IMG/VR virus record: IMGVR_UViG_3300045988_144682
Length of the DNA: 64,000 bases
Direction: 5' to 3' (one strand)
From: a virus
Positions 5,542 through 42,441 of the stretch are shown one piece after another; position 1 is the first letter of the stretch; each line of letters begins with the position of its first letter. Both the position numbers and the translations under genes were made by a program. The notes below the pieces were generated by a model. That model was not told where the DNA came from. It saw nothing but the letters and a program-made list of their open reading frames with translations, and ran no database searches.

Positions 5542-8500
5542 CTAAGAATTTATTGCCCCCCCCAAGTACCTAAATGACAGGTTGCCATTTGAACGTGGGA
5601 TAAAAGCAAATTTTCCAAGTTGCAATCTATCTAAGATTTCAGCATCCGTTACATACAGCTTATTGTTACTGAAATAAGCAACTTCATCTGTTCCTTGGTA
5701 GAAACTTAACTTTTGCTCGCTCAACAGCATTGATAACTGCATAGACGGATCTTGGCTAGAAATCTTTCTTGTAATACGCAGTCCGGCATCTTCCATAGAG
5801 AAACATTCAGTCGTTTGCTCTATACTTTCAACTCTTCCGTTTATGGCATCAACACGAACAATGTATGTATTGACATCAGTTTGTACCTTATCAACTTGTT
5901 GTTGTGTCGTGACATTACTTTTCCGGATTTCTTCTATACGCCCATCTTCGCCGACCAAATCATCAAAGTCTTTTCTATTTGAAACAACATCATTGATTAC
6001 ATCAGAGATAATCTTCTTCAATTCGTCAGACATATCACCAGTAATCTTATCTGCGTAATCTGTTAAATCCTCTGGAGCAGGGTAGTAGTCTGTAGGACGG
6101 TTTCCTTTTTCCAACTGGATATAATCAATTGCATAATAGTCATTACTGTTCATGTTATCTGTAATTCTAAGCACATTTGATGTCACCCCAACATTGCCAG
6201 TAGAAATCAACTGACCTGAAGATGTAACAAACATGTCACGATTGTCAGATACAATATCAAACTCTGTATCTTCTAAAGTCAGGACGGTGTAAACCTTGTT
6301 CCATCCAGATGTAAGCTGTATCTGTTGCATATCAGTTGTCTGCATTACACCATTCGTATTTGCAAGGCAAACATTGAGTGTCATATTTTGACGAGAATAT
6401 ACATTCATTGATACCGTCAGTTTCGTTCCAAGTTCCGTAGCAACCAAATTGTCCGTATATACTTCGTAGTACACAGCCTTGGCAGCATTTGAGCCAGTTC
6501 CAGGCTGTACCTTGATTACACGCTTTGCATCAATTTCAGCTTCAGAAATAGAATATACTTTGTCAGTTCCATAATAATGACAACCTTCAAGCTGGTTCGA
6601 TTTCTTCAACAGGTTTCTTGCTCCGATAAGCATGTTTGAACTATCAACTAAGATAGGAACTGTCTGAATATCAAGTAGATTATCTTCAGTTGGAATTTGA
6701 TTAGCTTTGTGCATTTCTATAGTGTAAAAAGCTGGCATGTTAGCCTCACCATAAATAGTAAATATTTGTTCGGAAATATTATTTGATGAACTTATAATTT
6801 CTTCTGTACGATTATCACTATAAGTTTTTGATATAATAAAACGGCATGGGTAAACAACTCGATCACCATCCCCATCTCTATAATATCCTTTTGCTTTTAT
6901 CGTATCTGGTGTGATAATATTATTTCCGTCAATTTTTACAGCACTTGTATCAAGTTCTAAGAAATAAGTTCTTCCGGCATCACCAACATCACCTTGTTTT
7001 GCATTAGTATATGAGACAGTAGAGTTGCCATCTGAATATTGAACGGTTGTTCTTGTCCAAAGGTACATGCCATCTACTAAATCAGGGATTTCATCTGACC
7101 ATTTATTCGTTACGAATAAATTAGAAGAATTATCAATCAATGATTTTCCATCATTTGTAACAAGCTCAACTGATTCTGGAGGAACAGAAGAATTTTCTGT
7201 TGTGGTGATATATTCTACTTTAGTAGAAGTGATAGTAACATCATCACCCTTGATTTTTGACCAAGTGTAATCTGTGGGATTTTTACTATCTGTCTCAATA
7301 TTGTCAGTATATTGTCCGATATATTTTTTATTTGTTCCATTAACTGTATCAAAACCAGTTTTACCGTCAGAGGAATCGGCATAAGCTATATGAATATATC
7401 CGTTTTCACCAGGAACGCCATTTTCACCTACATATTTAGACCACTTATATTCGCTTGATTTTGTTGGTGCGATTGAAGTGGTAGTTGATGCTATACCAAC
7501 ATATTTTGTCGTTGATGATGGAGTTGCAGTCATTCCAGTACCATTTGCATCAGTAGCATAACGTACCCAAAGGTAAGAAGATGTACCATCGAAATAATCT
7601 ACACCCTTAATAGGTGTCTTTCCGTCCGTTCCTTTAATTAAAGTCCACGTATATTTTGTCGAATCATCACTATCGGCTTCAATATTATCGGTATATTGAC
7701 CAATGTATTTTTTACCCATTCCAACTGTTTTACTAAATCCAGTTTTGCCATCGGCAGAGTCAGCATAAGCAATATGAACATATCCATTCTTTCCAGGAGT
7801 TCCGTTTTCGCCTACATATTTCGACCATTTATAATTGCTTATTGTAGTTGGCGCAGTGTTTGTTGTGGTAGTCGCAGTACCTATATATTTTGTATCTGCA
7901 CTTGGAGTCGTAGTCATACCACTTCCATCAGAATTAGCGGAGTAACGAATCCATAAATATGAAGATGTACCGTCAAAATAGTCAACACCTTTTACTGGTG
8001 TTTTACCATCATCACCCTTGATTTTTGACCAAGTGTAATCCTTATAATTTCCACTGTCTGCTTGTGTATTGTCGGAATATACTCCAATATAAATTGCACC
8101 AGTAAATTCGGATTTAGAGAATCCTTCCTTACCATCAGCACTCATGGCGTAAGCAAAATGGACATAACCATTTTTACCTGGAATACCATCTTCACCATCT
8201 TTACCAGCGAACTTAGACCATACATAAGAATTTGCAGAGTCAGGATCTTTTATTACATCGTTGACACAAATACCTATATAATCAGAAGGAATTTCTGAAA
8301 TTTGGTCATCTGTAGGATTTGGATAAGCAGAATATTTTATATGGACATAATTACTTGAACCATCTCTACCATCACGTCCATTGATACCGTCTTTACCGTC
8401 AGTTCCATCAATACCTTGTCTCGATACACTGTATGTGACGGTCGAATTTCCGTCTGAATAATTTACAGTAGTTCTCGTCCAAAGATAAGAACCTTCAATT

Positions 8501-13605: not shown

Positions 13606-16600
13606 TTACCACTTATATTTATTTTTGGCTAATGTGCTTTTACCAGCAACAACACCAATCGTCATAGCTTGAATCATATCTTCAAACTTTTCATCCTTTT
13701 TTGCACGATTCATAAATTCCTCATAGTTTGTTACATTTGGCAGATTAAATGTAACTTCACCTATGCTGTTATTATTTACACGCATATAAGGTTCAAGACC
13801 AGAAAGAATACCATTATTAAACAAGTTCCCACTAATAAATCCAGACGGATCGCTTGCCATATCCCATATGTTTCGTGTGGCATCGGCGGTAAGCACACTG
13901 TCACCTTTTGCGATATGAGTTACAATAGCGTTCTCAGATGGCTTGACAATAGATTCACTACCAAGCTCATTTACCCACGCATTTTCAGCTTTCGGAGCAT
14001 TTTTCAGACCGACAGCATATTTATTGTAATGATATGGTGAAAGATCACGGATTCCCTGGTATCTACCAACCCACGCACCAGAACGTACATAACCTTCTCT
14101 GCCCATCTGATTTACGATACTTTGAACTCTATTGGCATCAAAACCTTTAGCTTGCAAACGGCTAACTCTGGTATTTCCAGTTCCCCAACCATAGTTACCG
14201 TTCCAAATAGCAAGAGCAACACCATAGTAATCCTTATCGGTTCGTGCCGGTTTTAATGGTGTAGAAGGAGTATTGTTTGACGGTTTTGAAGGTTGACTTG
14301 CTGGTTTACTTGCTTCCGTCTGTTTCTTTGTGGCTTCCGCTTTAGCTTTCGCCTCTGCATCTGCCTTTGCAATCAAAGCATCAGTATAAGCCTTAATACC
14401 AAGAATCGCATTCAATGTAGAAGTATTCTGTGTTAAGAACTGATCGCCATATTTAGAAATAACAGTGAAAGCACCACCATCATTCGTCCAGATAGAATTC
14501 ATGGTTTCTGACAATGTATAGCCAACATTTGCACATTCTTGTTGAATTGTATCGCTAATAGAAGATGAATTTGCATTGATTGAATCAATCATGTCAGATA
14601 AAAAAGCATCAACGTTATCCAATCTTGCATTAAGAGATAACTCATATTCATTATACAAATCATCTAATAATTTTTTCTGGTCTGTGATGTATCTGTCATA
14701 CTCTGTTTCTTGCAATTCTTCCATAGCTTTTGATAAATCAACCTGAATTTTCTGAATTGTAGCTTTAGTTTCCTCTGAATTATCTCCGGCATAAGCTGAT
14801 AACTGTTTCTGCAAAGAAGCAATTTCATCAGATTGTTCTTTTACCTTTTTCTGATAATCATAGAGGTCTTTTGCACTATCCAATGAATCTGTATAAGCAT
14901 CTATCAAATCTTTGAGAGAATCAAGCTGCGCTTCAATTCCGTCTTTTACCAAATCAATCATAGCCTGTTTTTCATCTTCGGCAGCAAGAATAGATTTTCT
15001 CTGTAATTCGAGAAGTTCCTGTCTACGTTCAATGAGGTCAGTGTTATATGGATCTTTAGCAATTTCCGCATTTAACTCTTTGATAGCTTTGGCATATTGG
15101 TCAGCTTGTGCCATATCGACATTGTAATTCTGTCCATGTAATCCCATAGTTGCCATGCCGGTATCTGTCATTTGACCTTTATCATCAAATAACTTTCCAT
15201 TTGCCATTAAGTCAATGAGAAAATCTGCTTCATCGGTAATATTTGATATACGGTCTTCCATATAATCAAAATATTCCCAATCAAGCTCACGCATTGTTTT
15301 CTGATATTCAAGCAGCGAGAGATTAGATTCATCAATTGCCTCTTTGACATCATTGATGCTTTTCTGCATCTCATACCATTGCTCAGAACCCTTTTCGATT
15401 TCACCAGAAGCCATTGCCTGATTGAAAGATTCCGTTAAATCAACTAATTCTTTTTGGAGAATTGCCTGATTTTCTTTTTCAGCTTTTTGGAGAGCTTGAT
15501 AATAAACCTTGCTTCCTTTTAAGCCTTTTGCTTCCAGTGTATCAAGCCCAGTGTTATATGTATCAGTCAAATGTTGTACAAGAGCTAACTGGTTATCAAA
15601 ATCAGTGGAAATGTTACTGAATCTGTCAGCATATAACTGGGCGATTTCTTCATGCAAATCGGCTACAGCGTCTTTTGCTTCAATCGCTTTTTCATAAAAG
15701 TCTTGAAAATCCTTAATCTTATCAGACAAGTCTTCATCAGTAATCGTGGATATATCAATCGTGCCATTCTTTACCTTGTCCATCCAGTCAGATGATAAAC
15801 CGACAGAATTAGCCTGTTGCATATATCTGGTGTATGCTTGATTCTGAGTATTGATTTGCTGAGTGATTAAAGAGATTTCATCGGCAGCAGTACTATTACG
15901 TTTTACCAACGTTTTGAATGCACTTTCTGCTTTTACTTTTACTCTGTCAATCGCTTCACTGATTCGATTTATGGCAATTTCAATCCAGTCAAATGTTTCT
16001 TCAAAATCTTTTTCTGTTGAAGAACTGCTTGAACTAGAACTTGATTTACTAGAAGAAGATGATCTTCCACTAGAACCGCTTGATTTTCCAGAAGACTTAC
16101 TACTTGATTTTCCAGAAGACTTACTACTTGATTTTGATGAAGAACCGCCACTTGTAGAAGGAAACCTCCAACCACTAGCATAAGCAGTACCACCAAGATA
16201 AGAACGTCCCCTAGAGTTAATCTTGCCACTTGATAAAAGTTGGCGTGATTGCTCTGCATCGAATACAATAGAACCTTCTGGAATATGGGCAAATTCAGCA
16301 CCACGATCTCCGACAGTCCACCATTGATTACCATTGACAACAATTTCTTGTCCTTTTTCACCGGTTAAAGCATCTTCAGATACTTTTGTCTTCCAACTGT
16401 CTTTAAGCCAACTTGTATCAAACAATGTTCCAGAAGCTCTTGCCGTACCACCATAACGAGCAGTACCAAGTAATTTACCCTTTCCAGTAGAAGAATATGT
16501 ATCTATATGATGCGTATAGATATACATATTTGAGGTTTTGCCATTTACACCATTCAAAGCAGAAGCAGCACTACTAGCAACAGAAGTTGCATTTTCTGTA

Positions 16601-19340
16601 GCTGTAATATTTGCCTTTGGTGATAATTTCGGTTGCAAAGAATTTAAAGCATTGTCTACAGTCTGGATTTCGCCAGTTGCAGTATCAGTAATGGAAATTT
16701 CACCATTCAAATATGCTTCTTTTTGTTCTGGTGTAAGAGAATTCCAAGTATTGATAACCCATGTTGCTTGATCTTCGGCAGACAATGATGCAAATTTTGG
16801 ATTTGCACTTGCATCATTCCATAACTGAATCAACTGAGTTGCATAATCTTCTGAGTATAAAGCACAAGTTTTAGAAATTAACTCACGTTTATTAACATCC
16901 TCGATTACAGGTGTTGCTTGATCTTCCGCAAGAATATTAAATGTGAGTGTATTATCTTCACCTTGTAAAACCTCTATTTTTTTCTGAACACCATCAATTT
17001 CGGCGGTATAAGTAATCGTACCGTCTTGATTTTTAAGAGCCTTTACTTCATCCTCAATGCCATCGCCATCAACGTCAGCATTAAATGTAATAGAACTTCC
17101 AGAAGCAAGTTGCTCAAGTTGTGATTGAATTTCATCAGTTGAAAGTTCCGCATTAACATGAAGCTCTTGAGGTTTGCTAAAGAAATCTTCCCATGCACTT
17201 TGTACTTCTTCTATAGAACTGTCAGTATTGATTTCTGGGTGAGTTTCAGAAAAAGCATTGAGTATGGATTTTTGTAATTCTTGAGTATTCTGGATTTTCG
17301 CTTGAATCTCAATAAATTTATTACTACCATATTCCTCTTTTGAAAGCTGGTCGTATAAGTCATTGATTGTATTTTCATTGACTTTTATCTTAGCTTGTAC
17401 TTCTGCAGAAACATTATCAACTTGTAAACCTTGTTTGGCAGTAGTGAGATATTTTTGATTGGCAGCCAATACCTCTGCATTCGTATCTGCATTTTTACCA
17501 CCTTGTCCAGATTGTTTTGCTGTCAGTTCATCAATCTGAGCCTGAATAGTAGAAAGGTCATATACAAATTCGATATGTACAATCTGGTCTTCCGTGAGTT
17601 CTGTCATATCATCTTGATATTTTTGATACTCGTCATCCCAGTTTTCAATAAGACTTCCAAGATGTTTTTTAAGCTGTCCGTCTTCCATATCTTTGTAAAC
17701 AGAATGAATTCCATCAAGTGCAGTCTTATATCTGTTTAATCCTTCAGCACTGAATACAACATCGTCAAATTCAGCACCATAAGATTCAAGACTATGCATA
17801 AGAGACTCAGTAGCCTCAACACTAATTCCAAGTTCTTTAGCAGCAGCAGCACTATTCTTGAATTTCTTTGTCCAAGAAAATTCGCCATTATCTTTTGTGG
17901 CAAATCCGCTCTTAACCAAATCATCGGCAAAATTAGTTACACTCTGAAGTGGGTTATCACTATCAAAGTATCGTTTTATTTTCTGCTGTGCTTTCTCCCA
18001 ATATTCAACATAAGCATCAGCATCATATTTATAATCATCTGGATTTATTTTTCCATATGTCATAAATTGGGCAGCAGTTTGGAAATCATCTGTGCCAACT
18101 TTGCCTTTCTTGTAAAGCTCTTGTGCTTTACTCAAAGCATCTGCCATATCAGTCCAATCTTGATCCTTATTTTTAGAATCCATTGCAGCTTTTACGCCAG
18201 CGATAGAACCATCTACACCAATAATTGCTTCTGAAGCTTCATCGGCACTTGCAGCTAAATCATTGAAATACTTCGCAATATCGGAAGCGTCCACACCATC
18301 AATGGCAATTCCCATACGCTTAATATCATCCGCTGTAAGTTCTGCCTGTTTTGCAGCTTCAAGGAGATTATCTTTAATGAAGTTTTTGCCGGTACTTCCA
18401 TCAAAGAAAGAATTGATTTTATTTAATTTCTTCTCTGCTTCTGATAAATCAACATTATTGTAAGCATCAAATAAATCATTTATACGATTTACAGTGTCTT
18501 CATATCCTGGAAGTACACTACCGTCTGTAGAGAAAAGAGAAGAGTAGTTTGAGTTAATTGTCTCAACATCTTCACTAACTTCTTTTTCCAAGTCACTAAC
18601 ATCTGATTTGAGATTTTTAAGCTGCTTTGTCTTCTGCTCATACTCAGTATCAGCTTGCCAGAAATGCTTATGATATTCCGGCTCCATGTTAGCAATTTCT
18701 TCTTCAAGTTTTACTTGCTCTGCTTTCTTCTCATTAAGTTTTTCTTGTTTAGATGTAGCACGATCAATGATATCACCAGACATATATTCCATGATTGGCA
18801 TACCATTGGTATCAGTCATCATATATCCATTTTTATCTTTAAGGAAATCGCCAGTTTGCCATGTTAAATCTTTCGTCAAAACATGGTTCGCATCTTCGGC
18901 AGCTACACCTTGTTGATAATTAGCAAGTTTCTGTTTGATTGCTAACTGTCTTTCAAGCTGGTCGTTTTCAGCCTGTAACTTTTGTAATTCAGCCTCTTCG
19001 GTTATGGTAAGAGAATCCATAGAGTTTAACTCATTGATTCTGTCCTTTACCTCTGAAAGCCGAGACTCTAAAGATTCTACTTCACTTGCTGTCTGTTCAT
19101 AAGCACTACGAGACTTATCGGCTTTTTCTACGGCTTCATCAAATGATTCTGTGACAAGATCGACTATGGCAACAACAGCAACGATGCCAGCAGCAATAGC
19201 AAGAAAGCCACCTAAAGCAGCAGTAGATATACCTATCGCACTAGCAAGACCTTCAAAACCTAATGATGCTGCAGCAGCAACATCACCTAAAGAAGTTAAG
19301 CCACCAGCAGCGGACATAGCACCAATAAGATCTTTTATCG
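13606..19340 (-). CDS. tape measure protein, exon 2 (C-terminal ~1911 aa)
   Basis: Long ORF without its own RBS. It continues the Gly/Ala hydrophobic segment of exon 1, then long coiled coils, a Ser/Lys low-complexity run and a CW_7-like motif (IWNGNYGWGTGNTRVSRLQAKGFDANRVQSIVNQM). The exon boundary is inferred. Confidence 0.7.
16081..16135 (-). repeat. 24-nt perfect tandem repeat in Ser/Lys-rich tract of TMP
   Basis: TGATTTTCCAGAAGACTTACTACT occurs twice (16081-16104, 16105-16128), followed by a 7-nt partial copy. Encodes the SSKSSGKS repeats. Confidence 0.85.
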
Positions 19341-19347
19341 CCAATAA

Positions 19348-19374
19348 TAATCTTGCAAATAATAATAGTAATAA
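19348..19374. repeat. left arm of 27-bp inverted repeat
   Basis: Reverse complement of 19962-19988 with one mismatch, including 19 consecutive perfect bp (19348-19366 / 19970-19988). Confidence 0.9.
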
Positions 19375-19385
19375 ACAGATTTTTG

Positions 19386-19394
19386 TGATATAAT
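19386..19394 (+). promoter_or_regulatory. extended -10 promoter (TGATATAAT) for the intron-embedded plus-strand gene
   Basis: TGnTATAAT lies 33 nt upstream of ATG 19427. AAGGAG RBS sits 7 nt before the ATG. The -35 is weak. Confidence 0.5.
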
Positions 19395-19426
19395 TATAAA
19401 TAATATCAAACAATAAGGAGAAAAAT

Positions 19427-19960
19427 ATGGCACTTATTAAATGTCCTGAGTGCGGAAAAGAAATTTCCGACAAATCAAAACATTGCATTCATTGTGGATA
19501 TCCACTTGATGAATTAAAAATAAATAATACCAACCAACTCTACAAAATTGTATTAACAGATCATGGCAAAAACAAAGTTCAAACAATTGCCAAAATCCGT
19601 GAATTTACCGGCATGGGATTAGCCGAAGCAAAGAAATTTTCTGAATCTTTACCACAAGTAATTCAATCTGGTATCAACATGGATGAATGTAATTTGATAC
19701 AGTCACACTTTTTATCAGTCGGTGCAACCGTAGAAATTCAGCCAGATAATGAATCTGTTTCAAAAAACACAGTTTTAGAGAATAAACCAATAGCAAAAGC
19801 TATAGTTAAAGACAAAAATGTAATTACTTGTCCGAAATGTGGATCTACTGCTATCGTAACCACAAATAGAGGATTCTCTATAATGACTGGATTTATTGGC
19901 TCTGGCAGTCCACGTAATGTATGTCAAAATTGTGGATTCAAATGGAAACCAAGAGCATAA
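19427..19960 (+). CDS. zinc-ribbon / ribosomal protein L7-L12 C-terminal-domain-like / zinc-ribbon protein
   Basis: 177 aa. N-terminal CPECG..CIHCG. Central region YKIVLTDHGKNKVQTIAKIREFTGMGLAEAKKFSESLPQVIQSGINMDECNLIQSHFLSVGATVEIQ aligns along its length with the E. coli L7/L12 CTD. C-terminal CPKCG..CQNCG. Confidence 0.8.
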   Translation: MALIKCPECGKEISDKSKHCIHCGYPLDELKINNTNQLYKIVLTDHGKNKVQTIAKIREFTGMGLAEAKKFSESLPQVIQSGINMDECNLIQSHFLSVGATVEIQPDNESVSKNTVLENKPIAKAIVKDKNVITCPKCGSTAIVTTNRGFSIMTGFIGSGSPRNVCQNCGFKWKPRA

Positions 19961-19961
19961 A

Positions 19962-19988
19962 TTATTACCATTATTATTTGCAAGATTA
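19962..19988. repeat. right arm of 27-bp inverted repeat
   Basis: Pairs with 19348-19374. Starts 2 nt after the stop of the 177-aa gene. Confidence 0.9.
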
Positions 19989-20047
19989 GATATGCTACTT
20001 CGTGTATTGGACTACAATGACAGTTTGGTTACTGACGAGCATATCAA

Positions 20048-20075
20048 CATGACTATGATATAATCATGTTTTATC
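20048..20075 (+). terminator. probable intrinsic terminator of the plus-strand gene (same hairpin as intron P9)
   Basis: CATGACTAT-GAT-ATAATCATG (9-bp stem) followed by TTTTAT on the plus strand. Confidence 0.45.
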
Positions 20076-20383
20076 CGACTGTCTATCACACTTGCCTATG
20101 GCAAGCGAACTCCCTTACAGTCTGTGAACCTTCCCGTTTATCACAAATTCCAACGTGATACAAACCTATAAAATAGGAGAGGGGATTGGATGCTGACTAT
20201 CCATTGTCCTATACAGTATACTTAGCATTATTTTTTAGCATATATACATTTTGACGTATAGTGTAAATTCAAACTTTTTTCTGCATTTCTGCGACTATCA
20301 CGCCTATCCGTTAGGATTACGTTGTAGCGTTGAATTGTTAGGATTTCCCAGCAGTTTGAAAGTTTATGCATCTATGGACTCGC

Positions 20384-22541
20384 ACCCATAGAGGGCAAAT
20401 TCTTTACCAAAATTTTTAATTAGTGCTACGATTCCAACACCAGCACCTATTGTTCCCAAAGTACCAATGTGGTCGATTACTGTAGTAATTGCTTCCGCAA
20501 TTTCTGTCAGACCAGAAACTACGCCTTTTACGAAACCAGAATCTAAGAAAGAATTTGAAAGTCCTTCCCATGCAGCTTTGAGCTGATTTACTCTTGCTTC
20601 GATAGAATCCATGTATTTTTCGTGTTCTTGCATTGCAGAACCTTCAGAATTCATGGATACATCAAGGGCTTGTCTTGCAATATCAAAGTTCTCCATAAGA
20701 GATGCCATTACATTACCTTGATGTTTTCCGGCAAGCAATTCAGTAATACTTGCCTGTTGAATATCCGTTAAGTCTTTCCATTTCTGAGATAACTCGTCCA
20801 TGATTTGATATGTAGACTTAAAGGTATTTTTATCAAGCATAATATCTACACCTGATAATGCTTTTATTTCTGCTTGAAGTTTAGCGGTAGATTCTGCCAT
20901 ACCATCTGTTTCTAAACCAGCTTCTTCAAGCTCAGTTGTTGCGCCACGTATACGCATTGAGATCGTCTTAAACGCATTACCGACTCTTGGAGCATCCTGA
21001 ACTACTGTATTAGCAGCAGTAATTAACGCTATGGTTTCATCAAGAGTATTATTTGCAGCAGCCATTGAAGATGCGGATCTTGTTAAGGCATCACCAATAC
21101 CGCCGGAACTGATAGCAAATCTGTTACCTACTTCATTGAATTTATCAACAATAGAAATAGCATCATTGGCTTGTATACCGAATGCTTGCATTGTTGAAAT
21201 TACACTGGAACTTGCTTCATCAATGCCAGAAATTTCGTCACCAACAACACTATAGATATTGGCAACTTCTGAAAGCTGTGTAGCGTCAGCCATTGAGTAA
21301 CCAAGTCGTGCAAAGTTAGCTGTTGAATTTACATAGTCGGTAATAGTCGTGCCAAGTTCTACAGAACGCTTTGAAGCATTTGTAAGAAAGCTAGAATAAG
21401 CGGAGTCCGTTTCATCTGTAACTTTCTTCAATTCTGTCATGGCACTATCAATATTTACTACATTTGAATACATATCTTTCAATCCACGAATGGCGGTGTT
21501 AATCATAGCCCCCATACCAAACAAAGGACTAAGACTTGTCATATTGTCTTTTAATGTAGCAAATACGCCCTTGCCGAGACTTCCAGACGCAGCAGCAGTA
21601 GTTTTTAATTCTGTAAATTGTCTATTTACATCTTTAAGTGCGCTACCAGTAGTGGCATTAGCCAAAGCTGTTTGTATATCTTTCAGTTCATTCTTGTACT
21701 TTCTAGCAGCTATCGTATTTTTGTTCATCCAGGTTTCAATTTGATTACCCAAAACTGTTCTCTGAGATAACAATTGCTGTGATGCTGCAAGAGAATCATT
21801 TTCTGCCTTTGCTTCTTTATAAGCAAGTTTAAGTTTTCCAACTTCTTGTGTTATTCTGTCAAATTCAGCTTGTTGTTTATCTAGTCCAGATATATTACCA
21901 ATACCAGCTAATTCAGATTTTAATTTTGACAGTTCTGCAGAATAACTATTTGTATCACCTTTCAGCTTTACAAACCCAGCATTAAGTGATGCAATATCGG
22001 AGTTTAATTTTGACACATCCGCACCAGTAAACATCTGCCTAAAAGATTCACGTACTCTGGAAGACGTATTTATCAAATCACCAGTTTGTGCGCTGAATGA
22101 TTGCATAGCTGTTACTGCACGACCTAAATCATCCACACCAGTTACAGTAACATTTAAGCGATCACCGTTTAATTCGTGACTTATGCCAGTTACAGTAACT
22201 TTTAAATTATCCAATTCCTTTGTAATATTGGATATGGAACTTTTATTAAAACCAAAATTCTGCAATGAATTTTGTAGATTTTTTATTTCTGTTTTCGTTC
22301 TACTTAAATCAATACTGTTTAAAGACGCATTAGCATTTCTGGCGAAATTATTGCCAGCAACATTACCAGCCTGACCAAATTGTGATTTTATCTGATTCAA
22401 ATAGCCGTTTATATTTCCATTTTTGGACACCAAATTTACATCAACATCAATTTTGTGCTTTGCATTTGTGAAAGCATTCATTTGTTGCTGTGCCTTGGCG
22501 GTATCAAGCTCCGCTATAACGTGAGCAATAAAATCTGACAT
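20384..22541 (-). CDS. tape measure protein, exon 1 (TP901-type core)
   Basis: GGAGG RBS. Contains the TP901-family TMP core (…LGYSMADATQLSEVANIYSVVGDE…NRFAISSGGIGDAL…). The genomic ORF runs on to a TAA at 20364, inside the proposed intron. Confidence 0.8.
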
Positions 22542-23010: not shown

Positions 23011-24045
23011 TTATAGATCACTTAAAGACGAACTCTTACCTTCCACAATTCCATCTTTTGTGAAATACTTACTGAATTCTTCGGAAACCTCACTATCGTT
23101 GTAGAGATTAACCATGTCCGAACTACTCCATCCGAAAAATTCCTGAACAACATTTGCCGGGATATTCAGCTTCAATAATTTTGTGTTGAGATAATGTCTC
23201 ATGCAGTGCCAGTAAAAATCCACACCTAATTCATTTGAGAAGATGTTCGCCCAACTATCAAGAGTACTGACTTTCATTTGTGCATAAGAACCATCACCAC
23301 ATCTATGTACAAAAAGCCATTCGCTCTCAATGCCTTGTTTCTTACGTTGTTCCATCCATAAATCAAGGTATTTCTTAAACTCATAAAGCACATATTTATT
23401 GAGCTGTTTACCTGTTTTACCAGCTCCCTTAGTTTTGATCTTAGGAGTCTTATATAAACCACCATAAACAATATTGTTCTCATCGAAGTATTCAACTTTG
23501 AATCTCAACAATTCTGATTTTCTAGCACCACTCATTGCAGCCAAAGCAAAAGCACATGCCTGTTGGTATCGTTCTTCACTAACCAATTTATCTAAGAATT
23601 TATCTACGTCATCATCTGGGATAATGGTTTTCTCACGAACAGCTTCGTTCTTCGGGGATTCAATCTTTCCAATAATGGATCGGAAATTCTCAAAATCTTC
23701 GTCTTCGTCCTGTAAAATATTTTCAATATAATTTGACATGCTACTGATAGCAGATTTTACCCTACGAATTCTTTTCGGACTCCAACCCCATTCATTGATT
23801 GCATATCCCTGGAATCGTGCAAGCTCACGTTTCTTGATATCAACAAAAAATTTATTGTTGTTGTACTCTAAGTTCCAGCAGAAGAAAATTTCTAGGTCGT
23901 TTCTGTACCCGTTAATTGTAGAAGGGGCACGATCAATAGACGCAAGATATTCAAGAAAATCTTCACAAAGTTGTTTATTGTTTGGATTGATTTTCTTGAT
24001 AGATTCTTCGTTTGTAATTTTGTTATAAATTGTTGTTCTACCCAT
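23011..24045 (-). CDS. tyrosine recombinase (phage integrase / XerC-D family)
   Basis: 344 aa. SAM-like N-domain (INGYRNDLEIFF). Catalytic ARKSEL (R), HCMRHY (HxxR), GWSS and LY (Tyr). Confidence 0.85.
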   Translation of the reverse strand: MGRTTIYNKITNEESIKKINPNNKQLCEDFLEYLASIDRAPSTINGYRNDLEIFFCWNLEYNNNKFFVDIKKRELARFQGYAINEWGWSPKRIRRVKSAISSMSNYIENILQDEDEDFENFRSIIGKIESPKNEAVREKTIIPDDDVDKFLDKLVSEERYQQACAFALAAMSGARKSELLRFKVEYFDENNIVYGGLYKTPKIKTKGAGKTGKQLNKYVLYEFKKYLDLWMEQRKKQGIESEWLFVHRCGDGSYAQMKVSTLDSWANIFSNELGVDFYWHCMRHYLNTKLLKLNIPANVVQEFFGWSSSDMVNLYNDSEVSEEFSKYFTKDGIVEGKSSSLSDL

Positions 24046-37766: not shown

Positions 37767-37850
37767 TAGGAGATGTGGGACTCGAACCCACACGCCAATA
37801 ACGGCACTGCGCCCTTAACGCAGCGTGTCTACCAATTCCACCAATCTCCC
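37767..37850 (-). tRNA. tRNA-Leu, anticodon reads AAG in a standard 7-nt loop
   Basis: Cloverleaf with a Leu-type D arm (GGAATTGGTAGAC), long variable arm and T loop GGTTCGAGTCC. Anticodon stem CTGCG/CGCAG, loop TTAAGGG. G1.U72. Confidence 0.8.
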
Positions 37851-37893
37851 ATATAAAAAAGCATGGGAAGTTTCCAACCCATGCTATAAAAGA

Positions 37894-39336
37894 TTACAAC
37901 GAAATTTTCATTCCTTTATTTGAACATAAGACTCTGAAAGTCTTATTATTTTTAGAAATTTCTTTTCTTAAACTTTCAGATAATGACTTTTTGCTTTCTT
38001 CGCTACCATGAACCAAGATAAGTTTGTTTGTATTCAAAGAACTACCGAACTTAATCAAGTCATCTCTATTGGCATGGCTACTGAAAGTAGAGAGCGATAT
38101 ACAGTCAGTCCTATTTACAACCGGCACTTTATTGATTGTCAGTTTCTTGTAGTCTTTATAGTTCTTGATTCGATAGGAGAGATATGAAGGATTATCGCCA
38201 ACATATCCAGAGAATACAACCATACTGTTTGGATCGGGCAAGAACTTTTGTAAATAGTTTACAATCCTACCATTTGTACAAAATCCAGAGGATGACAATA
38301 CAATCTTCGGAGTAGTATCATTCTGGCACATTTTGGATTCTTCTTTCTCAGATAAAAAAACAACATTTTTCCAATTTCGCACTTTCATCCATAATTCCAG
38401 GTCTTCGCCTTTAAGTATGGTTTCATATAAGTCAGAAATTTCACAGCTAAGTTTTGAATCAACAACTACATCAGCTTTAAATGAATCGTCACAACCAAAA
38501 ATCAAATAGAGAACAGTAAGTAATTCTTGTGTCCGACTAAAACTGAAACATGGCAGCAGAAGAGTACCTTTTCGCTCCAATACAGTATTGACAGCTACTC
38601 TCAAATGCTCAACGTCAAAATCCCTGGTTTTCTTATTTACTTTTTCTCTACTTCCATATGTACTTTCCATAATGGCAACATCATTGAACATTGCCGGAAT
38701 TTCAGTATTTCTTACATAATGATTTTTCGTATTCAAAGCACCAAGATCAGATGTATACAGAATTTTCTTTGTCTTCAATCCATCTGACAAAATCAATTGT
38801 AATTGAGCAGCACCTACACAATGAGAGTTTGGAATCCACTGAAAACTAACTACATCGTCAAGTTGGAAAACAACACCATATTCACTATAAGGTTTAATTA
38901 ACTGCAATGTTTTAGAAACATCATCTTCACTATAAATAGGAGAGTAATTTCTGCTGTAGCGTTTTGAAAGAATTCTTGCTTCATCAGCTACAATAAAAGC
39001 ACAATTAAAAAGCAGCGATTTCATAACCGCTGCAGTGTTAGGTGTAGTTATAATTTTTCCATTGAATCCCTGGGCAACCAATCGAGGAATTAAGCCACAA
39101 TGATCCACATGTGGATGTGCCACAAACAAGTAATCAATCTCACTTGGTTTGAATCCAAATTTCTTTGAATTGATTTTATAGGAATCAAGATAACTATTGC
39201 TTTTGGATTGATATAATCCGCATTCCAGTAATATCTTTTTGCCTCCAAATTGTACAAGGTACTGAGAGCCGGTGACATCTGTTGATGATTCACCTAAGAA
39301 ATAAATTCCATCATTATTTTGTTTGTGTTTAGACAT
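37894..39336 (-). CDS. beta-CASP metallo-beta-lactamase-fold nuclease (RNase J/CPSF-like)
   Basis: 480 aa with an AAAGGTGG RBS. HPHVDH (HxHxDH) motif and a beta-CASP-sized C-terminal half. Embedded between tRNA genes. Confidence 0.7.
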   Translation of the reverse strand: MSKHKQNNDGIYFLGESSTDVTGSQYLVQFGGKKILLECGLYQSKSNSYLDSYKINSKKFGFKPSEIDYLFVAHPHVDHCGLIPRLVAQGFNGKIITTPNTAAVMKSLLFNCAFIVADEARILSKRYSRNYSPIYSEDDVSKTLQLIKPYSEYGVVFQLDDVVSFQWIPNSHCVGAAQLQLILSDGLKTKKILYTSDLGALNTKNHYVRNTEIPAMFNDVAIMESTYGSREKVNKKTRDFDVEHLRVAVNTVLERKGTLLLPCFSFSRTQELLTVLYLIFGCDDSFKADVVVDSKLSCEISDLYETILKGEDLELWMKVRNWKNVVFLSEKEESKMCQNDTTPKIVLSSSGFCTNGRIVNYLQKFLPDPNSMVVFSGYVGDNPSYLSYRIKNYKDYKKLTINKVPVVNRTDCISLSTFSSHANRDDLIKFGSSLNTNKLILVHGSEESKKSLSESLRKEISKNNKTFRVLCSNKGMKISL

Positions 39337-39368
39337 ATAATTCCACCTTTATTATTATTTGTTTATAG

Positions 39369-39448
39369 TAGTAGATACGAGACTCGAACTCGTAAGGTTT
39401 CCCGGCAGTGTTTGAGACTGCTGCGTTTGCCTGTTTCGCCAATCTACC
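39369..39448 (-). tRNA. tRNA-Leu(CAA)
   Basis: Anticodon arm GCAGT-CTCAAAC-ACTGC, long variable arm, T arm ACGAG-TTCGAGT-CTCGT. Confidence 0.8.
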
Positions 39449-39535
39449 ACAATATATAAACAAAGCTACTTGATAAGTGTCAGATAGCTTCGGAATAATT
39501 TATGATTTACACTATTTGATAGTGGTAATTTTTAA

Positions 39536-39618
39536 TGTGGATGATGGGACTTGAACCCATACACCATTAAGATAGCAGAGCTTAAATCTGCTGCGTCTGC
39601 CAATTACGCCACATCCAC
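39536..39618 (-). tRNA. tRNA-Leu(TAA)
   Basis: Perfect acceptor GTGGATG/CATCCAC. Anticodon arm GCAGA-TTTAAGC-TCTGC. Long variable arm. Confidence 0.9.
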
Positions 39619-39696
39619 ATGATATATTGTAGAATTATAGTCTAATTGAAAATGTAATGTTCCATATAATATAATCATTGCATCACACTCTCAATA

Positions 39697-39769
39697 AGCT
39701 GGTAAAGGGACTCGAACCCTTAACCTACTGATTACAGGTCAGTTGCGCTACCAATTGCGCCATACCAGC
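39697..39769 (-). tRNA. tRNA-Thr(TGT), with C at position 33
   Basis: Acceptor GCTGGTA/TACCAGC. Anticodon arm ACTGA-CCTGTAA-TCAGT. T loop TTCGAGT. Confidence 0.85.
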
Positions 39770-40014
39770 AGATGTGTTCAATGAGGTTTACCTAGTGCGC
39801 CCTCTGACAGACAATGAACTGTGCCATCCCCACGTGTATAAATAGTTATAGATTATCCTGGTGACTATTTCGGATACATACATGGTTTCAACCTTAACAC
39901 CAGTTTCGATAAAACATCTACCCATCTATTATTGATATCTGATAATAAATAGACATAGCGTAATATCTAGCGCACTAAAAACCTTCATCCATCGCTTTAA
40001 ACTTTGTGCGTTTC

Positions 40015-40039
40015 AATTGTATTTTGCTTTGTTACAATT
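40015..40039 (-). ncRNA. small hairpin with ACAAAGCAAAA loop (mini version of the array stem-loop motif)
   Basis: Minus strand reads AATTGTA-ACAAAGCAAAA-TACAATT (7-bp stem). Confidence 0.35.
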
Positions 40040-40091
40040 CAAGTTTATTGTTATTTATCTTCAAAGCTAAGACTTTCACATCCACGGTAAA

Positions 40092-40163
40092 CTGGGGTAG
40101 CTGGATTCGAACCAGCGAATACAGGAGTCAAAGTCCTGTGCCTTACCGCTTGGCGATACCCCA
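40092..40163 (-). tRNA. tRNA-Gln(TTG)
   Basis: TGGGGTATCGCCAAGCGGTAAGGCA body. Anticodon arm CAGGA-CTTTGAC-TCCTG. Confidence 0.9.
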
Positions 40164-40170
40164 TTATAAA

Positions 40171-40242
40171 CTGCCCCGGTGGGGATCGAACCCACAACAT
40201 ACAGATTAACAGTCTGCCGTTCTACCATTGGACTACAGGGCA
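40171..40242 (-). tRNA. tRNA-Asn(GTT)
   Basis: Anticodon arm GCAGA-CTGTTAA-TCTGT. T arm GTGGG-TTCGATC-CCCAC. Confidence 0.85.
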
Positions 40243-40309
40243 TTAAAAACTGATAATGACTATGCCAAAATCAGATTTCCTATCTACACATGGTAGATGG
40301 ATAAAAGAC

Positions 40310-40432
40310 AAGTCGCTAAGATCGAAGAAAATCTGATGATAGACAATACACTGAAGATTGTCTGGTCAGATTTTTATGTAAATATTTGCATTACTTACCC
40401 AATTTTTCGTTATAATTTGCTGTATGCGACTT
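40310..40432 (-). ncRNA. array stem-loop module A
   Basis: 7-bp closing stem AAGTCGC / GCGACTT. Loop starts ATACAGCAAATT. Confidence 0.55.
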
Positions 40433-40436
40433 TCAC

Positions 40437-40550
40437 TAGGCTCTAAATGTAAACTATTTCATTCATCAAAAATACTTAGTGTTTGAGGGGAAAATATAAA
40501 ATATTCTTTAATATGTTTTGTTAGTTGTTCATATTTGCTGTGTGAGCCTA
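40437..40550 (-). ncRNA. array stem-loop module B
   Basis: 7-bp closing stem TAGGCTC / GAGCCTA. Loop starts (A)CACAGCAAATA. Confidence 0.55.
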
Positions 40551-40553
40551 TAC

Positions 40554-40706
40554 TAGACACTTTGACAGAGGATATCATTATCTTCTGTTGATTTACAATA
40601 GGATATTAAGGGGAGGAATAATATCCTATGCTTTTTCATATAATTTTCATTTGCTTGTAAAAATAATTTGAAAGAATTAAATCAAAAATTTTGCTGTATG
40701 TGTCTA
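40554..40706 (-). ncRNA. array stem-loop module C
   Basis: 7-bp closing stem TAGACAC / GTGTCTA. Loop starts ATACAGCAAAAT. Begins 2 nt after the tRNA-Ile 3' end. Confidence 0.55.
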
Positions 40707-40708
40707 AA

Positions 40709-40779
40709 TTGGAATAATAAGAATCGAACTTATGTGACCTCCGTATCAGAGAGGCATTCTACCATTGAATTATATTCCA
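40709..40779 (-). tRNA. tRNA-Ile(GAT)
   Basis: Acceptor TGGAATA/TATTCCA. Anticodon loop CTGATAC. T arm ATAAG-TTCGATT-CTTAT. Confidence 0.85.
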
Positions 40780-40791
40780 GTATAATATGAG

Positions 40792-40883
40792 CGGTAAGGG
40801 TGGGCTACGACCCCACGGTACATGACTTAACATGTACGCTAGATTAGCAATCTAGTGCATTAAACCAACTCTGCCACCTTACC
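40792..40883 (-). tRNA. tRNA-Ser(GCT)
   Basis: Acceptor GGTAAGG/CCTTACC. Anticodon arm CTAGA-TTGCTAA-TCTAG. Long variable arm. Unusual T loop GTCGTAG. Confidence 0.8.
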
Positions 40884-40887
40884 ATGA

Positions 40888-40958
40888 TGGGTGTAGTGAG
40901 GCTTGAACTCACGACTTACCGGTTAAAAGCCGGTTACTCTACCAACTGAGTTACACCC
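40888..40958 (-). tRNA. tRNA-Lys(TTT)
   Basis: Anticodon arm ACCGG-CTTTTAA-CCGGT. T arm GTGAG-TTCAAGC-CTCAC. The acceptor-to-D connector looks 1 nt short. Confidence 0.75.
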
Positions 40959-41023
40959 AGATTAAATAATGTACCTATAATATTACATGCCAACCAATCG
41001 CCAAATTGATTATAACTGTAAAA

Positions 41024-41116
41024 CGAAGAGGGTGGGATTTGAACCCACGAACCGCCATCACTGACGGTTGCCAGTTTTCAAGACTGGTGCAATAATCCAG
41101 ACTCTGCCACCTCTCC
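41024..41116 (-). tRNA. tRNA-Ser(TGA)
   Basis: Anticodon arm CCAGT-CTTGAAA-ACTGG. Long variable arm. T arm GTGGG-TTCAAAT-CCCAC. Confidence 0.85.
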
Positions 41117-41125
41117 AAAAATAAA

Positions 41126-41197
41126 CACCCATACTTGGAATCGAACCAAGATCATAGCTTTAGAAGAACCATGTTCTCTCCATTGAACTATACGGGC
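41126..41197 (-). tRNA. tRNA-Arg(TCT)
   Basis: Anticodon loop CTTCTAA. T arm CTTGG-TTCGATT-CCAAG. G1.U72. Confidence 0.8.
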
Positions 41198-41201
41198 AAA
41201 A

Positions 41202-41273
41202 CAGACATAATAGGAATCGAACCTATATCGCACGATTCGTAGTCGTGAACTCTATCCATTAAGCTATATGTCC
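41202..41273 (-). tRNA. tRNA-Arg(ACG)
   Basis: Anticodon arm CACGA-CTACGAA-TCGTG. T arm ATAGG-TTCGATT-CCTAT. Confidence 0.85.
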
Positions 41274-41343
41274 ATGATTATGTTTTCTTCACCATTTCAT
41301 GTATACCTCATATGCCTTTTTATAAGGGCTTTATTTGATTGAG

Positions 41344-41416
41344 TGGGAAGTGGTGGAGTCGAACCACCTACACTTAGGGCTTCAACCTAATGCTCTACCA
41401 GTTGAGCTAACTTCCC
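41344..41416 (-). tRNA. tRNA-Phe(GAA)
   Basis: Acceptor GGGAAGT/ACTTCCC. Anticodon arm TTAGG-TTGAAGC-CCTAA. Confidence 0.9.
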
Positions 41417-41532
41417 AAATGTAGTTTACCCTTGCTATCGTGGAAGGAAAGATCTTCATTACCGCTTGTCGTAAACGCCAATTTCTACCGTTTGAAGTGA
41501 GTCGTTAGAATTGGTAAAGCAACTATCTCACA

Positions 41533-41616
41533 TGGGCGTGGAGGGAGTCGAACCCACTAGATCCCGAAGGCAGCAGATTTACAGTCTGCCCGATCTCCGT
41601 AGTCGTTTACACACCC
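41533..41616 (-). tRNA. tRNA-Tyr(GTA)
   Basis: Anticodon arm GCAGA-CTGTAAA-TCTGC. Long variable arm. One mismatch in the T stem. Confidence 0.8.
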
Positions 41617-41642
41617 AAATATAAAATTGCATAAATGCAAAA

Positions 41643-41715
41643 AGCATCTGACCGGGAATGATCCGGCATCGCCTGGGTGGAAGCCAGGTATGTTATCCAA
41701 TTACACCACAAATGC
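41643..41715 (-). tRNA. tRNA-Gly(TCC)
   Basis: Anticodon arm CCTGG-CTTCCAC-CCAGG. Unusual T loop ATCATTC. Confidence 0.8.
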
Positions 41716-41719
41716 AGAA

Positions 41720-41791
41720 CAGACGCAGTAGGACTCGAACCCACATCTTACAGTTTTGGAGACTGTTGTTTTACCATTAAACTACACATCT
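41720..41791 (-). tRNA. tRNA-Trp(CCA)
   Basis: Anticodon arm ACAGT-CTCCAAA-ACTGT. Acceptor stem has three G.U pairs. Confidence 0.8.
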
Positions 41792-41917
41792 ACAGTTAGT
41801 TTTTACTCGGCTTACACTATAACCCAACAAGCATATCACGTTAATATAACTTGCTACATTTATTTCTCGTTGTAAATGCTAAAAAACGTTTCTGGTTGAC
41901 TGCAGATTCACCAGTAA

Positions 41918-41990
41918 TAGGGTGTATGGGAATCGAACCCATCTCGTAGCCGTGAAAGGGCTATAACTTAAACCGCTTGTCCAACACCCC
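41918..41990 (-). tRNA. tRNA-Glu(TTC)
   Basis: Anticodon arm TAGCC-CTTTCAC-GGCTA. T arm ATGGG-TTCGATT-CCCAT. Confidence 0.85.
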
Positions 41991-41994
41991 ATAA

Positions 41995-42066
41995 CGGTCT
42001 AGGTGGGAATCGAACCCACGACTTCGGAGAGACAATCCGATGTTATTACCACTTAACTACAAGACC
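41995..42066 (-). tRNA. tRNA-Asp(GTC)
   Basis: Anticodon arm TCGGA-TTGTCTC-TCCGA. T arm GTGGG-TTCGATT-CCCAC. Confidence 0.85.
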
Positions 42067-42072
42067 AAAATC

Positions 42073-42136
42073 AAGGCACAATCCACTTAAAATATTCATC
42101 CATTTGAAAGTATAAGTAATTTGCTGTACGTGCCTT
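42073..42136 (-). ncRNA. array stem-loop module D
   Basis: 7-bp closing stem AAGGCAC / GTGCCTT. Loop starts GTACAGCAAATT. Ends 6 nt before the tRNA-Asp 5' end. Confidence 0.55.
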
Positions 42137-42143
42137 ACGAAAC

Positions 42144-42204
42144 TAAGCTCATTTCGGTAGTATTTTTAACAGAAATATCCCAAATAAATTGCTGTATGAG
42201 CTTA
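42144..42204 (-). ncRNA. array stem-loop module E
   Basis: 8-bp closing stem TAAGCTCA / TGAGCTTA. Loop starts TACAGCAATTT. Begins 3 nt after the tRNA-Cys 3' end. Confidence 0.55.
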
Positions 42205-42207
42205 AAG

Positions 42208-42281
42208 AGAGTACAGTTGGATTTGAACCAACGAATACTGATTTTGCAGACCAGTGCATTGCCAGACTTTGCTATGTACTC
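42208..42281 (-). tRNA. tRNA-Cys(GCA)
   Basis: Acceptor GAGTACA/TGTACTC. Anticodon loop CTGCAAA. T arm GTTGG-TTCAAAT-CCAAC. Confidence 0.85.
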
Positions 42282-42368
42282 TTACATAAACGATAGAACT
42301 ATTACGCAATGAATAGCCCCACCGCTTATTAACAAAAACATATAGGACAAAACATAAAACAAGATAAA

Positions 42369-42441
42369 TTGCGGATGGGGGATTTGAACCCTCGACCTCT
42401 TGCTTATGAGGCAAGCGAGCTGACCACTGCTCTAATCCGCA
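42369..42441 (-). tRNA. tRNA-Met(CAT), elongator-like (could be Ile2 if lysidinylated)
   Basis: Acceptor TGCGGAT/ATCCGCA. Anticodon arm CTTGC-CTCATAA-GCAAG. No initiator GGG/CCC stem. Confidence 0.85.

Follow-up and report, generated by a model that had tools for sequence, protein, structure and literature searches.

To our knowledge, the usual view of group I introns in bacteria and phages is that they are either empty or house a gene for a homing endonuclease. In phages, such endonuclease genes occur both within introns, as in td, nrdB and sunY of T4, and as free-standing genes of the seg and mob kinds. Phage morons of the lambda lom and bor type consist of a promoter and a gene inserted together into a late operon and are expressed from the prophage. 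Here, we analyse a gene that can be compared with each of these systems. It lies at 19427..19960 in the 64,000-nt stretch of viral DNA held as IMG/VR record IMGVR_UViG_3300045988_144682 (the whole stretch is called the window, and positions are those of the window unless a relative's locus is named), antisense within a predicted group I intron of the tape-measure protein (TMP) gene, and encodes a 177-amino-acid (aa) protein in which a C-terminal domain (CTD) of ribosomal protein bL12 stands between two zinc ribbons (ZnR).

Group I introns have been described in the prophage tape-measure genes of the Bacillus cereus group (Tourasse & Kolsto 2008, PMC2504315). These resemble the intron analysed here in being group I introns of the TMP gene of temperate Firmicutes phages, with related introns at conserved TMP sites; in the present case, however, the intron bears a putatively promoter-driven, non-endonuclease gene on the opposite strand, and a member of the same gene family is found in every informative relative. 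The antisense orientation has a parallel in eukaryotes, where His-Cys box homing endonuclease genes lie antisense in nuclear rDNA group I introns (PMC9548176). Like homing endonuclease genes in general, the gene occupies a peripheral loop of a group I intron, has its own predicted expression signals and belongs to a family with both intron-borne and free-standing members. Unlike them, it has no catalytic domain that we could find, the middle of the protein being a ribosomal-protein module or, in other members, another non-nuclease fold, and some copies sit in cellular housekeeping neighbourhoods. In the literature searched, we found no description of a non-endonuclease, promoter-bearing gene family as an antisense tenant of bacterial or phage group I introns, nor of a ZnR-X-ZnR scaffold with cassette-like modules or its ZnR-L12-ZnR member.

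The TMP is coded on the minus strand as a very long protein in two pieces, the first being the open reading frame (ORF) 20364..22541 (-), which ends ...GVGIVALIKNFGKEF...*, and the second lying within ORF 13606..19488 (-). Because the Rfam family Intron_gpI matches the minus strand, the 19427..19960 ORF is antisense to both the intron and the TMP, as a preliminary description of this stretch, made from the letters alone, had proposed. That description also placed the gene in a 587-nt loop closed by a 27-bp stem, and the two 27-nt arms of the inverted repeat are indeed 96% complementary, with the 587 nt between them holding the putative promoter, the Shine-Dalgarno (SD) sequence and the ORF. 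Compared with five homologues, intron-borne and free-standing alike, the ORF has a ratio of nonsynonymous to synonymous divergence (dN/dS) of 0.15-0.22 overall and below 0.5 in every module of the protein. It is thus a real protein-coding gene under purifying selection. The synonymous divergence itself (dS 0.13-0.48) is not reduced and therefore gives no sign of constraint at the RNA level; such a constraint, considered for the coding sequence of the N-terminal ribbon, was rejected on finding a normal dS there. A DNA search of cultured phages found no near-identical stretch, and tblastn returned rplL-like fragments only.

The preliminary description had staked its view of the product, an L7/L12 CTD flanked by two zinc ribbons, on a profile match to Ribosomal_L12. 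This match was found (63.5 bits against a Pfam cut-off of 25.9), and the AlphaFold2 model, with a predicted local distance difference test (pLDDT) score of 78.7, has the form of three beads on a string, the middle bead superposing on the E. coli L7/L12 CTD (1ctf) with a template-modelling (TM) score of 0.92 and a root-mean-square deviation of 1.0 A (Foldseek). The C-terminal CxxC..CxxC region drew only weak zinc-ribbon matches in Pfam, and its invariant residues are C135, C138, R148, G149, G155, G158, C166 and C169. Although the middle domain shares the fold and the helix 4-5 signature of ribosomal bL12 (RplL), the 177-aa protein has neither the hinge nor the N-terminal domain for dimerisation and uL10 binding, residues 1-39 being zinc ribbon and linker where bL12 would have its N-terminal domain. 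In line with this, the NCBIfam equivalog TIGR00855 aligns at model positions 59-124 only and scores 53.3 bits, below its cut-off of 84.4. Lacking that domain and the hinge, the protein cannot join the stalk in the normal way, and it is not a functional bL12.

In a conservation profile of the 88 family members having the L12 module, the best-conserved positions (E. coli numbering) are K65, V66, I69, R73, T76, G77, L80, E82, A83 and K84, which make up the helix 4-5 face, and the module of the window bears the hallmark NK..I(K).(V)RE.TG.GL.EAK signature of these two helices. We take this face to be the contact surface for IF2, EF-Tu, EF-G and RF3; a part for helix 4-5 residues in factor binding was reportedly established by Helgstrand in 2007, Kothe in 2004 and Diaconu in 2005. 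A literature search on the residue set V66/I69/K70/R73 returned nothing usable. The conservation of the face suggests that the L12 module may bind partners of the ribosomal stalk, and it lends indirect support to the preliminary proposal that the protein could titrate translational GTPases. Proteins with a bL12 domain that keep the factor-binding residues have been reported from viruses, namely proteobacterial podoviruses and metagenomes (Mizuno et al. 2019, PMC6375957). As in those proteins, the CTD here is part of a larger protein, has homologues without the domain and was acquired independently in different contexts, but none of them has the ZnR-L12-ZnR architecture, and no intron or antisense context is described for them.

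Scans with Pfam, NCBIfam, PHROG and PADLOC found no homing-endonuclease catalytic domain (LAGLIDADG, GIY-YIG, HNH, His-Cys or PD-(D/E)xK). The best 25 of the 44 Pfam families listed are all zinc-ribbon or metal-binding families or Ribosomal_L12, with no HNH, GIY-YIG or LAGLIDADG family among them, and a fold search of the model returned only L12/ClpS-like folds and generic zinc ribbons. As had been claimed at the outset, the ORF is probably not the homing endonuclease of the intron. NCBIfam and PDB sequence searches for a function of the zinc ribbons gave generic ribbon matches only, and PADLOC gave only a marginal match of the window protein to PDC-S64 (E=0.0045), which does not place it in a known defence system.

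The protein belongs instead to PHROG 2546, a family of unknown function (phrog_2546, E=4.4e-17, aa 4-158). Its members have an N-terminal ribbon with the signature MALIKCPECG..CIHCG[YF]PL, a C-terminal ribbon with the signature CP.CGS..RG[FY]S..GF.GS..C..CG.KW and a variable module between the two, an architecture that we call ZnR-X-ZnR and that the window protein shares. A large protein database held 2825 relatives in one search and 970 in another, and in the family alignments both ribbons are almost invariant while the middle segment varies. The L12-like module is present in only a subset of 53 distinct proteins from IMG/VR loci, which have several types of middle segment. The variation reaches alleles of a single intron: at locus L013, where exon 1 is 99% identical to that of the window and the intron core 95% identical over the first 453 nt, the antisense ORF keeps both zinc ribbons, and its middle segment is unrelated and without a Pfam match, while an intron of the L014 type (exon 1 86% identical) has a third kind of middle segment. 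The constant feature is thus the ZnR-X-ZnR family and not the L12 copy, with L12 as one interchangeable module. Because the middle module is swapped among alleles of the same intron, any explanation must cover the ZnR-X-ZnR scaffold. Whether homologous introns carry the same cargo, as the preliminary description had asked, accordingly has a divided answer: the ZnR-X-ZnR family is present throughout the informative relatives, the L12 module only in some.

A comparison of the intron-borne copy at L012 with the free-standing one at L008 points to how the exchange may work. There is one synonymous change across the L12 module, against a dS of 0.36 in the C-terminal ribbon, and this uneven divergence marks the copies as mosaics produced by recombination. 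During exchange of the middle cassette, the conserved ends that encode the ribbons probably serve as arms of homology. Distant members (L273, and L022 3157-3585 (-)) keep the C-terminal ribbon and have several different N-terminal CxxC knuckles, which makes the C-terminal ribbon a candidate for the true signature of the family; the L273 member is an antisense ORF 131-638 nt downstream of the P7 motif.

The family is closely tied to this intron lineage. Searching IMG/VR with the family alignment, we took the best 80 loci of 515 matching stretches: in 56 the gene lies antisense between two pieces recognisable as TMP exons 1 and 2, in a further 9 it lies antisense beside one TMP piece (65 antisense in all), 11 have it co-directional and about 1 kb upstream of the TMP, and in 4 no TMP was found. 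Conversely, every interrupted TMP found through its exon 1 has an antisense member (L012-L016, L028 and L035, and a distant member in L022), with L007 and L012 repeating the arrangement of the window. An independent scan of IMG/VR with the P7-core motif gave 30 loci, of which three had too little flank and three, in unrelated GC-rich contexts, were set aside; the remaining 24 informative loci all have an antisense member 640-1135 nt downstream of the motif. In a distant phage group, that of the P0090 loci, an insert of 2.5 kb with three antisense genes occupies the same TMP site (...GVGITKFVKSIS*). The genes code for a proteasome/HslV-like protein (PF00227), a DUF2513 protein and a ZnR-L12 protein, and it is again the ZnR gene that adjoins exon 2. 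According to GTDB records, the hosts are gut Clostridia, for example Lachnospiraceae, Oscillospiraceae and Intestinimonas.

The ribozyme core of the window falls below the Rfam gathering score (Table 1), and that of L013 reaches 38 bits. Eight cores from different phages, those of the window and of seven relatives, align with conserved P3-P8, and RNAalifold on this alignment finds compensatory changes in 32 of 59 pairs. A core profile run with nhmmer matches all compact ZnR-bearing loci and the L092 group, with E-values down to 1e-72, and matches neither the uninterrupted TMP loci (L017-L091) nor the free-standing loci. By this covariation and distribution, the introns read as real ribozyme relatives. 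Rfam recognised no core of the L014, L092 or L143 types, of which our own alignment and nhmmer profile recover the first two. The L143 type, which by our reading of the list without hits makes up roughly 45 of the 80 IMG/VR loci, is recognised by neither Rfam nor the profile. At L143 5850-6330 (-) and in similar loci (L127-L177), the intervening sequence opens with an element resembling that of the recognised introns, TGACCCAAAA...GGGTT, and contains many GNRA-type hairpins, and exon 2 begins at G|TCATTAAGTAAAATCGG, with the G conserved. An intron is putative in the L143-type loci, where the intervening sequence may be a different or decayed ribozyme class; the alternative is that the TMP is truly split into two genes.

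Two differences between the window and L013 bear on the closing stem: one is a double change from C-G to U-A, and the other a change of A to G, which leaves a U.G pair on the intron-sense strand only. Because these changes preserve pairing on the intron-sense strand, the stem is selected in the intron RNA and not in the mRNA of the cargo gene. L013 also has a 35-nt insertion relative to the window (6441-6475), between the arm of the closing stem and the stop codon of the ORF. On the TMP-sense strand, this insertion has a GC-rich hairpin (GAGCCT..AGGCTC) with TATATTTTTA after it, which resembles a terminator on the 'wrong' strand and may have arrived together with the swapped cassette. For the 5' splice site, we predict a P1 of 6 bp between AAAUUU (20415-20410) and GAAUUU (20402-20397), with the pair U20410.G20402 at the cleavage site. 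The sole downstream G that restores the frame is G19352, giving ...ALIKN-L-LLLAIKDLIGAM... (...ALIKN-L-LLLAIKDLIG...), and the same splice phase works in L013, so that the predicted exon junction in the TMP mRNA is ...AAUUU|AUUAUUAUUG... No convincing P10 was found at the predicted splice sites, a junction pattern search of IMG/VR found no closely related intronless allele, and in the more distant uninterrupted TMPs the sequence around this site has diverged too far to place the junction. An in-frame junction (…KNF|AIKD…) was set aside, its P1 having just 3-4 pairs against 6 for the phase-2 junction.

The gene had further been credited with its own extended -10, an AAGGAG ribosome-binding site and a terminator reusing the P9 hairpin. 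The first two were recovered, the -10 one base from the position implied earlier. Within the window, the motif TGNTATAAT occurs 12 times against 7.15 expected, which is not significant alone; in the upstream regions of distinct homologues, however, TA[TAC]AAT lies at -45..-25 from the ATG in 41 of 44 despite differing surroundings, and a strong SD sequence follows the conserved box. L013 has TGATAGAAT at the same place as the -10 of the window, and the co-directional copies have a near-consensus promoter, TTGACT-17-TGTATAAT. With the -10 in the final ~40 nt of the intron, and a -35 region that shares sequence with the closing stem and the 3' splice site, the predicted expression signals are built into the intron's 3' end. 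The pattern fits moron-like transcription by the host RNA polymerase, independent of the late operon. The terminator did not survive: the P9 hairpin (~20093-20112) has no U tract, and the sole candidate in the plus-strand fold is a weak AU-rich hairpin near 20046-20075 followed by UUUUAU. A second perfect TGATATAAT on the cargo strand, at 20056-20064 (+) in the intron's P9-region hairpin, has probably arisen by chance.

Table 1 Coordinates of the antisense gene, its signals and protein modules, the predicted intron and the TMP exons in the window, with the comparable insert of a distant phage (own locus coordinates)
Feature	Position	Strand	Basis and remarks
ZnR - bL12 CTD - ZnR protein gene	19427..19960	+	177-aa ORF, stop codon counted
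N-terminal zinc ribbon, aa 5-27, CPEC..CIHC	19439..19507	+	Pfam Zn_Ribbon_1 E=2.7e-9; nearly invariant in the family
bL12 CTD module, aa 40-105	19544..19741	+	Pfam Ribosomal_L12 PF00542 E=2.4e-17
C-terminal zinc ribbon, aa 134-175, loop RG[FY]S..GF[IL]GS conserved	19826..19951	+	Family alignment; weak Pfam matches
Shine-Dalgarno AAGGAG	19415..19420	+	6 nt upstream of the ATG; inside the DNA common to free-standing copies
Extended -10 TGATATAAT, putative promoter	19386..19394	+	Outside the DNA common to free-standing copies
27-bp closing stem, 3' arm in the intron RNA	19348..19374	-	Inverted-repeat search; spans the predicted 3' splice site
27-bp closing stem, 5' arm in the intron RNA	19962..19988	-	Inverted-repeat search
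Group I ribozyme core	20055..20415	-	Rfam RF00028 Intron_gpI, 35.9 bits, E=7.8e-7, below gathering score 50
Whole predicted intron, 1058 nt	19352..20409	-	Inferred 5' site after U20410 and 3' site after G19352
TMP exon 1, PhageMin_Tail domain	20410..22541	-	ORF and relatives' loci
TMP exon 2	13606..19351	-	ORF and relatives' loci
P0090-type 2.5-kb insert of a distant phage	L092 5798-6811; also L093-L097	+	Three antisense genes at the same TMP site

Outside introns, two free-standing homologues (P0009 and P0004; proteins 91-93% identical) lie at the end of SPbeta-like prophages, in an operon that runs divergently from an XRE repressor gene and has a small serine recombinase as its neighbour; the gene follows either a 260-aa paralogue or an Mrr-type nuclease and a 274-aa protein. 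DNA homology between the window and these loci is confined to 19403-19955, that is, to the SD and the ORF, at about 93.5% identity. Two forms of the cassette can be told apart. In one, the genes for an Mrr-type nuclease, an unknown protein of 274 aa and ZnR-L12 are transcribed divergently from an XRE repressor; the other has a YpsA-SLOG protein, ZnR-L12 and a second ZnR paralogue. Both adjoin a small serine recombinase (L008 1972-4572; L001 5196-6534; L191 1879-5044), and L191, L192 and L196 have cassettes of resolvase, XRE and YpsA-SLOG with the second ZnR paralogue in tandem. The Mrr-type nuclease matches the ZorD and PDC-S02 models of PADLOC, and by gene content the free-standing cassettes look like a defence or conflict island. 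Cellular ZnR-L12-ZnR homologues were found directly downstream of rpsI (S9, Pfam 1.4e-48) at L187 3291-4513 and, at L180 2213-7857, flanked on both sides by aminoacyl-tRNA synthetase genes with Pfam domains consistent with thrS and metG; at L183, a cellular copy lies beside an XRE gene near iscS/nifU.

To account for these observations, we favour a composite explanation, to which we would give an even chance: that the gene is a self-transcribed, moron-like cargo gene and that its L12 module has as partner a protein normally docked on the stalk CTD. An accessory gene of the moron type would lie antisense in the 3' extension of a TMP group I intron, in an SPbeta-like phage of gut Clostridia. The long AU-rich stem in the intron RNA would extrude the 587-nt cargo loop, and such extrusion would let the ribozyme core and the 3' splice site still meet. 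A sigma-A-type extended -10 and a strong SD would drive the gene without the late (TMP) promoter, and with a promoter of its own the gene would be expected to be expressed whenever host RNA polymerase is free, the lysogen included. Two near-invariant zinc ribbons hold a fast-changing, recombinationally swappable middle module, which in the window is a bL12 CTD retaining the helix 4-5 face that the stalk presumably uses for IF2, EF-Tu, EF-G and RF3. The partner may then be one of the translational GTPases or else an effector for which bL12 is the landing pad, and the setting may be phage-phage or phage-host conflict or the control of translation. The Cami1-ribosome complex (PDB 8phj) provides an example of a defence effector docked on the bL12 CTD, and the free-standing loci have neighbours typical of conflict systems (Mrr-type nuclease, SLOG and XRE). 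The gene would share with morons an autonomous sigma-70-type promoter, a strong SD, a place in the late structural region and a variable presence among relatives; it differs from them in its site, an intron inside an essential gene and not an intergenic gap. What the sequences show is the anatomy, the family with its contexts, the purifying selection and the conserved place of the -10; when the gene is expressed, what its protein binds and which role it plays are inferred.

Several points weigh against this explanation. The tie between the family and the intron lineage is nearly obligate and exceeds what would be expected of a random passenger. No terminator-like site was found 3' of the ORF on the plus strand, where a moron would have its own. 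The K70 position is Ala in the allele of the window (IAKIRE for IK.VRE), with a Lys adjacent. Neither PADLOC nor PHROGs assign the protein a function. An isolated L12 CTD binds the factors only weakly, so that titration would need either high expression or tethering by the zinc ribbons. Furthermore, the commonest non-L12 module has a confident model (pLDDT 82) of a beta-hairpin and four helices, for which no match was found in the PDB. Without a recognisable fold in this module, 'mimicry' does not generalise to the family, and there is no support for a view of all modules as mimics of known host proteins.

The closeness of the tie could instead mean that the ZnR-X-ZnR protein serves the intron itself, as a factor for its mobility or maintenance, with the zinc ribbons essential and the middle module accessory. 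Such a factor might be a homing protein of an unconventional kind, might recruit a nuclease or recombinase of the host, or might bind RNA in the manner of a maturase. The near one-to-one link (all interrupted TMPs found through exon 1, 24 of 24 informative core loci, 65 of 80 family loci), the constant position of the gene against the 3' splice site, the classic homing-endonuclease-gene pattern of intron-borne and free-standing occurrence, and ribbons far better conserved than the middle module would all follow naturally. The same association is explicable, however, by descent from one ancestral intron with its ORF, and the near-identical intronless allele that would mark recent homing was not found. 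Neither a nuclease motif nor a nuclease fold turned up, the ribbons are only 23 and ~40 aa long and are without conserved His or acidic residues, and no intron lies near the copies that are adjacent to rpsI, flanked by synthetases (fitting thrS/metG) or part of the XRE cassettes. On balance, we consider this explanation unlikely. We are equally hesitant about a bolder proposal with two branches: that the intron and the antisense gene are a co-evolved composite, in which the intron is a safe harbour for a conflict gene within an essential late gene, exchangeable modules displayed on the scaffold act as baits or decoys and the L12 allele is a stalk decoy for bL12-docking (Cami1-like) effectors; or that the scaffold is a new non-nuclease factor of intron mobility or maintenance.

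More doubtful still is a role as an auxiliary of translation, in which the zinc ribbons would tether the protein to the ribosome or a messenger ribonucleoprotein and the extra L12 CTD would recruit GTPases for phage translation. The conserved factor-binding face, the 19 tRNA genes in the window and the cellular homologues beside rpsI and between the synthetase genes fitting thrS and metG are what such a role would predict, and a phage bL12-domain protein has been detected in ribosome fractions (PMC6375957); yet in the same study tagged phage bL12 did not co-purify with ribosomes. Zinc-ribbon matches to L37e and similar families are generic and give no pointer to ribosome binding, and other alleles have unrelated middle modules at the same locus. 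Finally, the suggestion that the antisense transcript, or its transcription, is the main function and the protein secondary, pairing or colliding with the TMP pre-mRNA to block splicing or TMP synthesis (for instance as a fail-safe in lysogens), agrees with the antisense orientation at 65 of 80 phage loci, with a putative promoter firing towards the ribozyme core with no terminator before it and with full complementarity of the mRNA to the 587-nt loop through which the core is joined to the 3' splice site, but is very improbable given the purifying selection on all parts of the protein, the unreduced dS (0.13-0.48) and the occurrence of the same protein at co-directional and free-standing loci without an antisense target.

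Other features of the window complete the picture of its setting. The tRNA genes form an array at 37767-42441 (-), scoring 48-71 bits with the Rfam tRNA model, and may be relevant to a translation-related reading of the L12 module. A tyrosine recombinase gene at 23011-24045 (-), with a Pfam Phage_integrase match (E=1.8e-17) and an N-terminal SAM-like domain, lies two genes upstream of the TMP within the tail module, an odd site for an integrase-type gene, and is also present in L007. TMP exon 2 contains a long Ser/Lys-rich low-complexity run (SSSKSSSKSSGKSSSKSSGKSSGSSGRSSSSSKSSSSSSSSS) at ~16000-16200 (-), and the precomputed Pfam annotation of L007 places a CW_7 cell-wall-binding domain in the TMP.

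The comparative pattern is a strong one, as judged from sequence. In hundreds of phage contigs of gut Clostridia, an intron lineage appears to carry, on the opposite strand, a non-nuclease gene with a cassette-swapped middle domain. If the gene is expressed in lysogens, introns could act within essential genes as harbours that tolerate the insertion of accessory or conflict genes. Should the L12 module bind partners of the stalk, it would offer a simple handle on how phages or defence systems manipulate the recruitment of translational GTPases. With thousands of relatives, some of them near ribosomal-protein and tRNA-synthetase genes, this uncharacterised family merits experimental study.

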